Shown here piece after piece: positions 6,191 through 11,400 of a stretch of DNA of 64,000 nt (position 1 is the stretch's first letter; each line of letters begins with the position of its first letter). The notes under the pieces are model-generated. The model was given only the letters and a program-made list of their open reading frames with translations, did not search any database and was not told where the DNA came from. Location of the stretch: the NCBI RefSeq assembly GCF_054482525.1, contig NZ_CM137006.1, one strand, 5' to 3'. Both the position numbers and the translations under genes were made by a program.

Positions 6191-8326
6191 TTGCTTAATC
6201 CGATCGTTCGTAAATTCCAGTACGGCCAACACACCGTGACTCTGGAAACCGGCATGATGGCTCGTCAGGCTACTGCCGCTGTTATGGTTAGCATGGATGA
6301 CACCGCGGTATTCGTTACCGTTGTTGGCCAGAAAAAAGCCAAACCAGGTCAGGACTTCTTCCCACTGACCGTTAACTATCAGGAGCGTACCTACGCTGCT
6401 GGTCGTATCCCGGGTAGCTTCTTCCGTCGTGAAGGCCGCCCAAGCGAAGGCGAAACCCTGATCGCGCGTCTGATTGACCGCCCAATTCGCCCGCTGTTCC
6501 CGGAAGGCTTCGTCAACGAAGTTCAGGTTATCGCCACCGTGGTTTCTGTTAACCCGCAAGTTAACCCGGATATCGTCGCGATGATTGGTGCTTCCGCAGC
6601 ACTGTCTCTGTCTGGTATTCCGTTCAATGGTCCGATTGGTGCTGCCCGCGTAGGTTACATCAATGACCAGTACGTACTGAACCCGACTCAGGACGAGCTG
6701 AAAGAGAGCAAACTGGATCTGGTTGTTGCCGGTACTGAAGCCGCTGTACTGATGGTTGAATCTGAAGCTGAACTGCTGAGCGAAGACCAGATGTTGGGCG
6801 CAGTAGTGTTCGGTCATGAACAACAGCAGGTTGTCATTCAGAACATCAATGAACTGGTGAAAGAAGCCGGTAAACCGCGTTGGGACTGGCAGCCGGAGCC
6901 GGTAAACGAAGCGCTGAACGCGCGCGTTGCTGCACTGGCTGAAGCTCGTCTGAGCGATGCTTACCGCATCACCGACAAACAAGAGCGTTATGCGCAGGTT
7001 GATGTCATCAAATCTGAAACCATCGCGACGCTGCTTGCTGAAGATGAAACCCTGGACGAAAACGAACTGGGTGAAATTCTGCACGCTATCGAGAAAAACG
7101 TTGTTCGTAGCCGCGTACTGGCAGGCGAACCGCGTATCGACGGTCGTGAAAAAGATATGATTCGTGGTCTGGATGTGCGTACTGGCGTGCTGCCGCGTAC
7201 TCACGGTTCTGCGCTGTTCACCCGTGGTGAAACTCAGGCGCTGGTTACCGCAACGCTGGGTACTGCACGTGACGCGCAAGTTCTTGATGAACTAATGGGC
7301 GAACGTACTGACACCTTCCTGTTCCACTACAACTTCCCTCCGTACTCAGTAGGCGAAACCGGCATGGTCGGTTCTCCGAAGCGTCGTGAAATTGGTCACG
7401 GTCGTCTGGCGAAGCGCGGTGTGCTGGCAGTCATGCCGGATATGGACAAATTCCCGTACACCGTACGTGTTGTGTCTGAAATCACTGAATCCAACGGTTC
7501 CTCTTCTATGGCTTCCGTGTGCGGCGCGTCTCTGGCGCTGATGGACGCAGGTGTGCCAATCAAAGCTGCTGTTGCGGGTATCGCAATGGGTCTGGTGAAA
7601 GAAGGCGACAACTACGTTGTACTGTCTGACATTTTGGGCGACGAAGATCACCTGGGCGATATGGACTTCAAAGTTGCGGGTTCCCGCGACGGTATCTCTG
7701 CATTGCAGATGGATATCAAAATTGAAGGTATCACCAAAGAGATCATGCAGGTTGCGCTGAACCAGGCTAAAGGTGCGCGTCTGCATATCCTGGGCGTAAT
7801 GGAACAGGCGATCAACGCGCCGCGCGGCGATATCTCTGAGTTCGCTCCGCGTATCCATACCATCAAGATCAACCCGGACAAGATCAAAGACGTTATCGGT
7901 AAAGGCGGTTCTGTTATCCGTGCTCTGACCGAAGAAACTGGCACCACCATCGAAATCGAAGATGACGGTACTGTGAAGATCGCAGCGACCGACGGCGAGA
8001 AAGCGAAACATGCTATTCGTCGTATCGAAGAGATCACTGCAGAAATCGAAGTGGGCCGCGTCTACAATGGTAAAGTGACCCGTATCGTTGACTTTGGCGC
8101 ATTTGTTGCCATCGGCGGCGGTAAAGAAGGTCTGGTACACATCTCTCAGATCGCTGACAAACGCGTAGAGAAAGTGACCGATTACCTGCAGATGGGTCAG
8201 GAAGTACCGGTGAAAGTTCTGGAAGTTGATCGCCAGGGCCGTATCCGTCTGAGCATTAAAGAAGCGACTGAGCAGTCTCAACCTGCTGCAGCACCGGAAG
8301 CTCCGGCTGCTGAACAGGGCGAGTAA
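6191..8326 (+). CDS. pnp: Polynucleotide phosphorylase (PNPase), UUG start
   Basis: 711 aa from TTG at 6191 ([15 protein letters not shown]...); RNase PH, KH and S1 domains; track ORF from 6104 is an upstream in-frame extension. Confidence 0.95.
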
Positions 8327-8335
8327 GGTTGCCAT

Positions 8336-8365
8336 TTGCCCTCCGCTGCGGCGGGGGGCTTTTAA
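8336..8365 (+). terminator. Rho-independent terminator after pnp
   Basis: gccctccgctgcggcggggggc hairpin followed by tttt. Confidence 0.7.
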
Positions 8366-8434
8366 CCGGGCAGGACGCCTTGTTAGCAACCGGGAACAGG
8401 ACGTTCATTCAACCGTGGTCTTCGGGAGTGGGAA

Positions 8435-9319
8435 ATGAAGCCTTTTTTGCGCTGGTGTTTCGTTGCGACAGCACTTACGCTTGCAGGATGCAGTAATACT
8501 TCCTGGCGTAAAAGTGAAGTCCTCGCGGTACCATTGCAACCGACTTTACAGCAGGAAGTGATTCTGGCACGTATGGAACAAATCCTTGCCAGTCGGGCTT
8601 TAACCGATGACGAACGCGCACAGCTTTTATATGAGCGCGGAGTGTTGTATGATAGTCTCGGTCTGAGGGCATTAGCGCGTAACGATTTTTCGCAAGCGCT
8701 GGCAATCCGACCGGATATGCCTGAAGTATTCAATTACTTAGGCATATATTTAACGCAGGCAGGCAATTTTGATGCTGCCTATGAAGCGTTTGATTCTGTA
8801 CTTGAGCTTGATCCAACTTACAACTACGCGCACTTGAATCGCGGGATCGCATTATATTACGGCGGTCGTGATAAGTTAGCGCAAGATGATCTGCTGGCGT
8901 TTTATCAAGACGATCCCAATGATCCTTTCCGTAGTCTGTGGCTTTATCTCGCCGAGCAGAAGCTCGATGAGAAGCAGGCTAAAGAAGTGTTGAAACAGCA
9001 CTTCGAAAAATCGGATAAGGAACAGTGGGGATGGAACATTGTCGAGTTCTACCTGGGCAACATTAGCGAACAAACGTTAATGGAAAGGCTCAAGGCGGAC
9101 GCAACGGATAACACCTCGCTCGCTGAGCATCTCAGTGAAACCAACTTCTATTTAGGTAAGTACTACCTAAGTCTGGGGGATTTGGACAGCGCCACGGCAC
9201 TGTTCAAACTGGCGGTTGCCAACAACGTTCATAACTTTGTTGAGCACCGATACGCATTGTTGGAATTATCGCTCCTGGGCCAGGACCAAGATGACCTGGC
9301 AGAATCGGACCAGCAATAG
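8435..9319 (+). CDS. nlpI: Lipoprotein NlpI (TPR repeats)
   Basis: 294 aa; lipobox LTLAGC in signal peptide; TPR-like repeats. Confidence 0.95.
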
Positions 9320-9425
9320 CTGACGTACACATCAGCCCGTAATCTTTTTTGATTGCCATCACCTTAACGGGTGAGGGCGTTGTTGTTCGTTAATACACCT
9401 ACTTTGAGCCGGTTCACACTTTTCA

Positions 9426-9506
9426 ATGAAAATTGCTGATCAATTTCATGATGAGTTATGTAGACTGGCCGCCATTAATTTTGAGGCACACGTACTACAT
9501 GGCTGA
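9426..9506 (+). CDS. yrbN: Small protein YrbN (26 aa)
   Basis: atg aaa att gct gat caa ttt... translates [26 protein letters not shown]; stop overlaps deaD start. Confidence 0.5.
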
Positions 9507-11400
9507 ATTCGAAACCACTTTTGCAGATCTGGGCCTGAAGGCTCCTATCCTTGAAGCCCTTAACGATCTGGGTTACGAAAAACCATCTCCAATTCAGGCA
9601 GAGTGTATTCCACATCTGCTGAATGGCCGCGACGTTCTGGGTATGGCCCAGACGGGGAGCGGAAAAACTGCAGCATTCTCTTTACCTCTGCTGCAGAATC
9701 TTGATCCTGAGCTGAAAGCACCACAGATTCTGGTGTTGGCACCGACCCGCGAACTGGCGGTACAGGTTGCTGAGGCAATGACGGATTTCTCTAAACACAT
9801 GCGCGGCGTAAACGTGGTTGCCCTGTACGGCGGCCAGCGTTATGACGTGCAATTACGCGCCCTGCGTCAGGGGCCGCAGATCGTTGTCGGTACTCCGGGC
9901 CGTCTGCTGGATCACCTGAAACGTGGCACTCTGGACCTTTCTAAACTGAGCGGTCTGGTTCTGGATGAAGCTGACGAAATGCTGCGCATGGGCTTCATCG
10001 AAGACGTTGAAACCATTATGGCGCAGATCCCGGAAGGTCATCAGACCGCTCTGTTCTCTGCAACCATGCCGGAAGCGATTCGTCGCATTACCCGCCGCTT
10101 TATGAAAGAGCCGCAGGAAGTGCGCATTCAGTCCAGCGTGACTACCCGTCCTGACATCAGCCAGAGCTACTGGACCGTCTGGGGTATGCGTAAAAACGAA
10201 GCACTGGTACGTTTCCTGGAAGCGGAAGATTTTGATGCGGCGATTATCTTCGTTCGTACCAAAAACGCGACTCTGGAAGTGGCAGAAGCTCTTGAGCGTA
10301 ACGGCTACAATAGCGCCGCGCTGAACGGTGACATGAACCAGGCGCTGCGTGAGCAGACACTGGAACGACTGAAAGATGGTCGTCTGGACATCCTGATTGC
10401 GACCGACGTTGCGGCCCGTGGCCTGGACGTTGAGCGTATCAGCCTGGTAGTTAACTACGATATCCCGATGGATTCTGAGTCTTACGTTCACCGTATCGGT
10501 CGTACCGGTCGTGCGGGCCGTGCTGGCCGTGCGCTGCTGTTCGTTGAGAACCGTGAGCGTCGTCTGCTGCGTAACATTGAACGCACCATGAAGCTGACCA
10601 TTCCGGAAGTTGAACTGCCGAACGCAGAACTGCTGGGCAAACGTCGTCTGGAAAAATTCGCCGCTAAAGTACAGCAGCAGCTGGAAAGCAGCGATCTGGA
10701 TCAATACCGTGCACTGCTGAGCAAAATTCAGCCGACTGCCGAAGGCGAAGAGCTGGATCTCGAAACTCTGGCCGCCGCACTGCTGAAAATGGCACAGGGT
10801 GAACGTACTCTGATTGTTCCGCCAGATGCGCCGATGCGTCCGAAACGTGAATTCCGTGACCGTGATGACCGTGGTCCGCGCGATCGTAACGACCGTGGCC
10901 CGCGTGGTGACCGTGAAGATCGTCCGCGTCGTGAACGTCGTGATGTTGGCGATATGCAGCTGTACCGCATTGAAGTGGGCCGCGATGATGGTGTTGAAGT
11001 TCGTCATATCGTTGGCGCGATTGCTAACGAAGGCGACATCAGCAGCCGTTACATCGGTAACATCAAGCTGTTTGCTTCTCACTCCACCATCGAACTGCCG
11101 AAAGGTATGCCGGGTGAAGTGCTGCAACACTTTACGCGTACTCGCATTCTCAACAAGCCGATGAACATGCAGTTACTGGGCGATGCACAGCCGCATACTG
11201 GCGGTGAGCGTCGTGGCGGTGGTCGTGGTTTCGGTGGCGAACGTCGTGAAGGTGGTCGTGAAGGCGGTCGTAACTTCAGCGGTGAACGCCGTGAAGGTGG
11301 TCGTGGTGATGGTCGTCGTTTTAGCGGCGAACGTCGTGAAGGCCGCGCTCCGCGTCGTGATGACTCTACCGGTCGTCGTCGTTTCGGTGGTGATGCGTAA
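9499..11400 (+). CDS. deaD: ATP-dependent DEAD-box RNA helicase DeaD/CsdA
   Basis: [13 protein letters not shown]...; motifs [25 protein letters not shown]; Arg/Gly-rich repetitive C-terminus; start at ATG 9499. Confidence 0.95.

Follow-up and report, generated by a model that had tools for sequence, protein, structure and literature searches.

The window, the whole 64,000-nucleotide stretch of DNA that was analysed, is a segment of the E. coli chromosome with the gene order pnp-nlpI-yrbN-deaD-mtr. Four features describe the yrbN-deaD junction and the promoter that serves it.

8626-8653, plus strand: deaD promoter TTTATA-16-TATGAT, located inside nlpI by promoter scan
9426-9506, plus strand: yrbN, an upstream open reading frame of 26 codons running from the ATG at 9426 to the TGA at 9504-9506, read from the sequence and its translation
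9499-9506, plus strand: the overlap of yrbN and deaD, ATGGCTGA, 8 nt read in different frames, seen in the sequence
9499-11400, plus strand: the deaD (csdA) coding sequence, 633 codons, ATG at 9499-9501, N-terminus MAEFETTF..., from the open reading frame and N-terminal alignment

A first-pass annotation of this DNA had placed a 26-codon open reading frame immediately before deaD, and that frame is present at 9426-9506 with a peptide translation exactly as given there and with the junction triplets cat ggc tga and atg gct gaa correct on re-reading of the sequence. The accompanying description, that the stop overlaps the deaD start codon, is accurate for the reading frames, which share 8 nt, but not for the codons themselves: the TGA begins 2 nt past the ATG and takes its T from the third position of deaD codon 2 and its GA from the start of codon 3. 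The next stop in the yrbN frame is at 9552-9554. In all 30 Enterobacterales loci the N-terminus of DeaD aligned with the start at 9499. An N-terminally extended DeaD, beginning at the in-frame ATGATG at 9448, was considered and rejected, the codons involved not being conserved in other genera.

The reading frame at 9426-9506 is the already annotated E. coli gene yrbN (K-12 b4685; UniProt C1P618). A 241-nt query around it matched 5425 of 5426 complete E. coli genomes at an identity of at least 99%, and the RefSeq label "yrbN: protein YrbN" (WP_010723222.1), adjoining deaD, was among the matches listed. The copy in the window is 100% identical to the annotated RefSeq copy and lies, in the same way, downstream of nlpI and overlapping deaD. 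In addition, the peptide matched the NCBIfam equivalog model NF033440 (small_YrbN) over its full length (1-26 of 26) with 76.3 bits and E = 9.4e-22, against a curated cutoff of 33 bits. A scan of 8300-9700 on both strands with the Rfam 15 covariance models returned no match at E <= 1.

According to a preprint on the long csdA 5'UTR (10.1101/2021.03.08.434349), yrbN was found as a conserved small open reading frame by Hemm et al. 2008. The same 2021 preprint places yrbN and deaD in one transcript, contains both the 8-nt overlap and the idea of a leader peptide, and describes the function of YrbN as unknown; it offers neither a mechanism nor a structural analysis, and its reporters do not separate yrbN from the remainder of the UTR. 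The gene, its overlap with deaD and its possible leader role are thus already in the literature, and as the product of a genome scan the finding is ordinary. What the present analysis adds is nucleotide-level conservation across the order and a testable helix in which yrbN would mask the deaD start codon. It also differs from the preprint in that, in the present sample, the reading frame is confined to Enterobacterales. No mention of yrbN was found in the article supplements that were searched. A label "yrbN_PAIR_0" (VanOrsdel 2018) was set aside as apparently that of YnfR, a cold-induced small protein downstream of cspI; YnfR (MKAPSGAFLLGVYSMDTHILR) is unrelated to YrbN, and a comparison of the Qin csp region with the deaD leader gave no match.

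DeaD (CsdA) is the major cold-shock RNA helicase of E. coli, and few leaders known from this species match the 838 nt of its own (PMC7430678). The main deaD transcription start site (TSS), 838 nt upstream of the ATG (Ojha & Jain 2020, PMC7430678), accounts for about 90% of deaD transcription and falls at about position 8661 of the window, inside nlpI. The -10 element TATGAT found by promoter scan at 8648-8653 agrees with the published -10. The yrbN gene therefore lies within the 838-nt 5'UTR of deaD, of which it occupies the last 73 nt. Published regulatory work on the leader ignores yrbN: the gene is never mentioned in PMC7430678, where all deletions leave the last 100 nt of the leader and hence both yrbN and the conserved block before it, and across the published leader deletions (PMC7430678; 10.1101/2021.03.08.434349) yrbN was always either kept or removed along with other sequence.

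In a single genome, an open reading frame of this kind is not beyond chance, whereas its conservation across genomes is. When the spacer was shuffled with dinucleotide composition preserved, 402 of 3000 shuffles (13%) gave a comparable frame, defined as an ATG-initiated open reading frame of at least 26 codons ending within -20 to +10 of the deaD ATG. The comparative sample comprised 80 deaD loci, anchored on DeaD, with one genome per species. A YrbN-like open reading frame with an invariant ATG and a conserved core peptide was present in all 30 Enterobacterales loci, which span Enterobacteriaceae, Hafniaceae, Yersiniaceae, Erwiniaceae, Pectobacteriaceae, Morganellaceae and Budviciaceae. It was absent from the sampled Orbales, Pasteurellales, reduced-genome Pantoea symbionts and more distant Gammaproteobacteria. 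Conservation is concentrated in three segments, one of them outside the reading frame.

9403-9425, plus strand: block A, non-coding, about 22 nt (TTTGAGCCGGTTCACACTTTTCA), directly 5' of the yrbN ATG, from the alignment
9453-9473, plus strand: the yrbN core GAGTTATGTAGACTGGCCGCC, codons 10-16, encoding ELCRLAA, from the alignment
9483-9489, plus strand: the deaD Shine-Dalgarno (SD) block GAGGCAC, in yrbN codons 20-22, invariant in the aligned Enterobacterales

The mean major-allele frequency across 30 taxa was 0.955 over the 22 nt of block A at 9404-9425, and within the core it was 0.97 at each of the first, second and third codon positions. For the same taxa, third codon positions of deaD had a mean of only 0.654, or 0.666 in codons whose amino acid is invariant, and the best of 178 seven-codon windows reached 0.857; second codon positions of deaD, where changes are predominantly replacements, were invariant at 0.96. 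Conservation of the core peptide is accordingly explained by nucleotide-level constraint. Outside the core the peptide is highly variable, the residues IADQFH, MTENFL, RPESFH and TTDMRS being among those found and the length ranging from 18 to 26 amino acids, and the C-terminal third of the reading frame is missing in Erwiniaceae, Acerihabitans and Proteus. The conservation of yrbN is mostly at the nucleotide level and does not follow the pattern typical of a protein gene.

Several features of the alignment nevertheless point to selection on the reading frame. No indel separates the yrbN ATG from the core in the aligned taxa. The core lies 19, 22 or 25 nt from the deaD ATG in 26 of 27 sequences, which differ in length by 3 or 6 nt and retain the frame; the exception is Acerihabitans, at 23 nt. 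Over codons 2-9, pN/pS was 0.50 in the yrbN frame compared with 0.92 and 0.84 in the other two frames. The T that forms the TGA at deaD codons 2/3 or 3/4 was present in 30 of 30 ingroup loci, compared with 18 of 41 outgroup loci, and the ingroup has kept it despite the use of four different codons (GCT, ACT, TCT and AAT). As this T is also kept in the lineages where yrbN stops earlier (Erwiniaceae, Acerihabitans and Proteus), it may be selected for another reason. Finally, a divergent Enterobacterales metagenome-assembled genome (L032) has lost the core and yet keeps a 22-codon upstream open reading frame whose start context is unchanged and which stops 2 nt short of the deaD ATG. On these alignment patterns the frame appears to be translated, with selection acting on frame and end point and weak selection acting on amino acids.

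The stop codon lies within -19 to +8 of the deaD ATG in all 30 Enterobacterales loci. In most taxa, E. coli included, it is at +5, giving the 8-nt overlap, while in taxa whose DeaD begins MTTE it is at +8, giving an 11-nt overlap. Earlier stops occur in Proteus (-4), in Acerihabitans (-14) and, at -19, in Erwinia, Tatumella and one Rosenbergiella. As the end point varies over this range, literal overlap is not essential; what is constant across Enterobacterales is an open reading frame of at least 18 codons that ends within 20 nt of the deaD ATG. Post-termination ribosomes can reinitiate within a radius of about 40 nt at a start codon preceded by an SD (review PMC5972666), and all of the yrbN stops fall inside this radius of a deaD start that has an SD of its own. 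In most other families that SD lies 9 nt from the deaD ATG, whereas E. coli has a long spacing of 12 nt, which is consistent with weak independent initiation. We found no SD in the sequence before the yrbN start.

Two helices are predicted in this region, each of which uses part of the yrbN core.

9408-9418, plus strand: 5' arm of helix P1, GCCGGUUCACA, in block A at the yrbN ribosome-binding region, from the RNAalifold consensus
9459-9469, plus strand: 3' arm of helix P1, UGUAGACUGGC, from the RNAalifold consensus
9455-9463, plus strand: 5' arm of helix P2, GUUAUGUAG, yrbN codons 10-13, pairing with 9495-9503
9495-9503, plus strand: 3' arm of helix P2, CUACAUGGC, deaD -4 to +5 with the start codon included, from pairing and folding

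Applied to 27 leaders, RNAalifold predicts P1, with the yrbN start enclosed in its loop. In this helix 99.3% of alignment cells are paired, and the changes are one-sided and wobble-compatible, with no compensatory change. As both arms are nearly invariant, the shuffle control is uninformative for P1, which can be called "compatible" only. The minimum-free-energy fold of the E. coli sequence instead pairs the core with the deaD start as P2, which has 9 bp when extended. Here 98.7% of cells are paired, and there are two compensatory changes, each in one taxon: Proteus has C-G in place of A-U, and Acerihabitans has G-U in place of U-G/A. On every measure, all 500 column shuffles fell short of the observed value, a result to be read with the caution that related sequences can exceed all shuffles. 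The pairing statistics give moderate support to the predicted P2, and covariation has little power on helix arms that vary so little.

Because the 5' arm of P2 and the 3' arm of P1 share UGUAG, the two helices are mutually exclusive. At 37 °C they are predicted to be isoenergetic in E. coli (-29.7 versus -29.7 kcal/mol), with P2 dominant at 15 °C in the model, and across taxa P2 has a predicted median pair probability of 0.97, compared with 0.03 for P1. The predicted median probability that the deaD AUG is unpaired is 0.024 in yrbN-bearing leaders, compared with 0.74 in 18 outgroup leaders that have no yrbN (Mann-Whitney p = 9e-7), a contrast between groups that also differ in GC content (0.41 versus 0.32) and whose taxa are phylogenetically non-independent. 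When the upstream arm was shuffled, the corresponding value for the deaD AUG rose to 0.405. The local E. coli fold as a whole is no more stable than its shuffles (z = -0.58). Overlapping constraints, namely two alternative helices and a reading frame, would account for the frozen state of the core.

Taken as a model, these observations describe yrbN as a cis-acting upstream open reading frame whose translation would unmask the deaD start and couple it to yrbN by termination and reinitiation, a proposal to which we give roughly an even chance of being right. In the favoured fold, yrbN codons 10-13 would pair with the deaD start region and hide its AUG, and part of the deaD SD would also be paired, the partners in this fold lying in yrbN codons 10-16. 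The yrbN AUG, without an SD and in a more open, A/U-rich context, would be where a ribosome starts, and in elongating through yrbN that ribosome would melt the masking helix. Termination would follow at the UGA (9504-9506), which lies 18 nt beyond the GAGG of the SD and 2 nt beyond the deaD AUG, after which the same ribosome could reinitiate on deaD, or the exposed site could be taken by another 30S subunit. Unmasking of this kind would explain why all natural truncations of yrbN extend beyond codon 13 and why the end point stays near the deaD ATG; the variants of 18-22 codons do still read through the P2 5' arm (codons 10-13). We infer that deaD translation needs, or is modulated by, translation of yrbN, and that the YrbN peptide is probably not the functional product. 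The translational coupling that the first-pass annotation had suggested is therefore plausible on comparative evidence, from the position of the stop, the inclusion of the deaD SD and AUG within yrbN, and the conserved P2. Against it stand the lack of an SD before the yrbN start and the published conclusion that mRNA level accounts in full for DeaD autoregulation, leaving no significant part to translation (PMC7430678).

With the alternative helix P1 in place, the deaD AUG would be exposed and the yrbN ribosome-binding region occluded, which could make a two-state switch. The leader may thus be bistable, with P1 covering the region that is needed to start on yrbN. Extended to the whole order, the suggestion would be that the last ~100 nt of the leader form a switch with yrbN as its moving part, a speculative reading that we consider possible but on balance doubtful. 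P1 would block the yrbN ribosome-binding region and P2 would block deaD, and ribosomes reading yrbN would convert the masked state to the active one and load ribosomes onto deaD, which would also stop Rho from terminating there. If true, such a switch could link temperature, or helicase-dependent refolding of RNA, to the cold-induced Rho antitermination of deaD. More generally, if translation of yrbN gates the deaD start, it would constitute an element, testable by mutation, that links translation, RNA refolding and Rho-dependent attenuation.

The coupling model has to be weighed against readings in which yrbN serves another role or none. One of these, which we regard as unlikely, is that ribosomes on yrbN mainly shield the leader's 3' end, and the transition from it to deaD, against Rho termination and RNase E; the efficiency of initiation on yrbN, for example in the cold, would then set the level of deaD mRNA and not its translation. 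DeaD exerts 25-fold negative autoregulation through Rho-dependent termination and RNase E, with determinants spread over the 5'UTR (PMC7430678). Strong Rho-dependent termination yields transcript ends 400-900 nt from the TSS in vitro, together with RNase E decay in the 5'UTR (PMC7430678), and this range corresponds to about 9061-9561 of the window, spanning yrbN and the deaD start. In a 2025 review deaD appears among the targets of cold-induced Rho antitermination, with the "exact mechanism undetermined", and upstream-ORF control of Rho termination is known for tnaC and mgtA (PMC12360218). Published deletions speak against shielding, however. Removal of -820 to -101, which keeps yrbN, abolishes the Rho dependence of the leader, and regulation draws on several regions distributed across the upstream 720 nt (PMC7430678); because the published deletions map the determinants there, the main Rho entry sites lie upstream of yrbN. 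In addition, yrbN covers no more of the leader than its last 73 nt. No compositional signal of a Rho loading site was seen at yrbN itself: there is no C-rich, G-poor stretch at or just after the gene, and the C/G ratio is about 1.0 over 9389-9518, composition being a crude proxy. Shielding is compatible with coupling and may act together with it, and coupling might in turn feed into the Rho mechanism, in that ribosome loading at the yrbN/deaD junction would protect the deaD start from Rho.

Quite unlikely, in our assessment, is that a conserved nucleic-acid element is the functional entity, whether an RNA switch, a protein-binding site or a DNA operator in block A, and that yrbN is incidental, open only because the invariant sequence has no stop and translated, if at all, as a by-product. 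In its favour, the third positions of the core are as invariant as its first and second positions, far above those of deaD, the non-coding block A is equally invariant, nucleotide conservation fully explains that of the core peptide, and the C-terminal third is dispensable in Erwiniaceae, Acerihabitans and Proteus. An incidental frame would not readily account for the retention of frame in 26 of 27 sequences with the lowest pN/pS in the yrbN frame, for the invariant ATG, for the upstream open reading frame that L032 retains after loss of the core, or for the fact that yrbN never terminates before the P2 arm; yrbN is also reported as a small-protein gene (10.1101/2021.03.08.434349). As for an operator, block A contains a 12/16 palindrome that resembles the CRP core with one mismatch. 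This CRP-like palindrome was rejected as a lead, as one-mismatch sites occur near chance (5 found versus 1.66 expected), the invariant spacer and flanks exceed the needs of a CRP site, and no literature support was found. An internal promoter in block A (TTGAGC...) was likewise rejected, the promoter scan being negative there and most transcription coming from the -838 start described above (PMC7430678).

A trans-acting role for YrbN, in which the small protein is co-expressed with deaD and acts with or on, for example, DeaD, the ribosome or the degradosome, appears improbable. YrbN is an annotated protein with its own equivalog model, its core peptide is conserved across the order, and its tight linkage to deaD would give stoichiometric co-expression. 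Yet the peptide outside the core varies strongly in sequence and length and is truncated at its C-terminus in several families, the pN/pS of 0.50-0.64 indicates only weak selection when set against the second positions of deaD, a Pfam scan of YrbN found no domain, and a core with no synonymous variation is the opposite of a protein-driven signature. A classical amino-acid-sensing transcription attenuator of the trpL/hisL type, one sense of the leader-peptide role raised by the first-pass annotation, has a short open reading frame in a long leader as its sole favouring feature and is excluded by geometry, since the 8-nt overlap leaves no room for a terminator and antiterminator, no terminator was found in a scan of 8500-9700, there are no regulatory codon runs and no enrichment of the variable positions for any one residue, the three His residues are only partly conserved (many taxa have other residues in place of His8 and His22), and the peptide outside the core is poorly conserved.

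Coupled upstream open reading frames of the same general type have precedents. The uof-fur pair of E. coli, reportedly described by Vecerek et al. in 2007, is said to be a translationally coupled upstream open reading frame of this type. In uof-pqsR of Pseudomonas aeruginosa, which is activated by PhrS, the short upstream open reading frame ends at or next to the main start, as yrbN does; translation of the main open reading frame depends on the upstream one, and RNA structure around the ribosome-binding sites is the control point (review PMC8395346). The yrbN-deaD pair differs from both in that its coupling is a proposal, in that no sRNA partner is known, and in that the predicted masking helix is formed between the coding sequence of the upstream open reading frame itself and the main AUG. 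The tnaC-tnaAB and mgtL-mgtA systems (PMC12360218) resemble the deaD leader in having a long leader, Rho-dependent premature termination and a small open reading frame inside. In contrast to them, yrbN occupies the extreme 3' end of its leader and shares its last nucleotides with the main gene, inspection of yrbN gave neither a stalling motif nor a neighbouring rut-like C-rich tract, and the mapped regulatory determinants of deaD lie upstream of it (PMC7430678).

The long, structured leader of the cold-shock gene deaD also invites comparison with the cspA-type 5'UTR thermosensor. This leader and the region just upstream of the cspA SD share the octamer AGGCACAC, at chance level, whereas cspA has no upstream open reading frame and the deaD leader has no Rfam match and no significant sequence similarity to that of cspA. 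Cold-shock elements of the cspA kind were rejected on this basis, a local alignment of the deaD and cspA leaders being matched by 77 of 300 shuffles. A resemblance by eye to the 5' "cold box" of cspA was also set aside, as it was missed by the alignment and lies partly in positions that are variable in other genera.

Finally, a structured segment was observed upstream of block A, between nlpI and yrbN.

9320-9392, plus strand: structured spacer after the nlpI stop, with a fold of -26.5 kcal/mol

With z = -4.29 and 0 of 200 shuffles as stable, this spacer is more stable than expected from its composition. It ends in a hairpin, UCACCU-UAAC-GGGUGA (9359-9374), followed by a U-rich tail. The simple terminator scan of 8500-9700 did not call this hairpin as a terminator; both the hairpin and its tail are conserved, and together they are terminator-like and leaky in character.

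The published main deaD transcription start, at -838 relative to the deaD ATG, and the spacer between the nlpI stop codon and yrbN, the 26-codon upstream ORF, each have a recognizable sequence element, as follows.

8626-8653, sigma-70-like promoter TTTATA-16-TATGAT, found by promoter scan inside the nlpI coding sequence
9359-9374, hairpin UCACCU-UAAC-GGGUGA, then GGGCGUUGUUGUUCGUU, at the end of the 9320-9392 spacer

The scanned promoter coincides with the published -838 promoter (Ojha & Jain 2020, PMC7430678). As it lies inside nlpI, roughly 660 nt of what counts as the deaD "5'UTR" are coding sequence of nlpI, transcribed from an internal start. The spacer 3' of the nlpI stop (9320-9392) has a predicted fold of -26.5 kcal/mol (z = -4.29), with none of 200 shuffles equally stable, and in the leader comparison its hairpin and tail were kept across Enterobacterales. 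A simple terminator scan made no call at the hairpin. Together, hairpin and tail look like a leaky intrinsic terminator, and if they do act as one, both the pnp-nlpI transcripts and those starting at -838 must read through it to reach deaD.

Block A (TTTGAGCCGGTTCACA), the nearly invariant non-coding stretch directly 5' of the yrbN ATG that gives the 5' arm of the predicted helix P1, is also, at 9403-9418, a DNA palindrome at 12 of 16 positions and differs from the CRP core TGTGA-N6-TCACA at a single position. Judged from sequence, the invariance of block A might instead be due to an operator acting at the DNA level; one-mismatch matches to this core number 5 in the window, against 1.66 expected, and a literature search found no link between the block A palindrome and CRP. 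Within yrbN, the rare arginine codon AGA at codon 13 (9462-9464) is nearly invariant across Enterobacterales, and codon 24 in E. coli is the rare CTA. Because codon 13 falls within arms of both predicted, mutually exclusive helices (P1, with block A, and P2, with the deaD start), slow decoding and RNA pairing are inseparable here from sequence alone.

Just 5' of the deaD start, the octamer AGGCACAC (9485-9492) recurs in the cspA leader, in the context GCCGAAAGGCACAC about 30 nt before the cspA start codon. Outside the octamer the similarity of the two leaders is not significant, and the common 8-mer is within chance expectation.

In a divergent AT-rich Enterobacterales MAG (L032), a 22-codon upstream ORF, MKIVSCFLDNKYQRIDVNCGGM (1430-1498 of that locus), ends 2 nt before deaD and is retained despite loss of the conserved yrbN core. 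In three reduced-genome Pantoea symbionts (L037, L040 and L074) nlpI is gone, as is the upstream ORF (upstream of 1501), and the deaD SD block GAGGCAC persists in L037 alone. The name "yrbN_PAIR_0", given to a cold-induced small protein in the Figure 2 legend of PMC6001520, was considered as a possible YrbN paralogue and rejected; the accompanying text describes YnfR, encoded in the Qin prophage downstream of cspI-ynfQ, and as YnfR is unrelated to YrbN in sequence, the label is a naming artefact.

The deaD frame is open 5' as far as 9430 (9430-9498) and contains an in-frame ATGATG at 9448-9453, which corresponds to an older, longer DeaD annotation. Other genera do not share these ATGs, so a functional N-terminal extension of DeaD is unlikely. 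At the other end, the DeaD of the window (633 aa) is longer than that of the RefSeq comparator L001 (629 aa); its C-terminal tail, rich in arginine and glycine, carries one additional GGRE unit (about 11230-11260), apparently a small in-frame polymorphism in repeat number.
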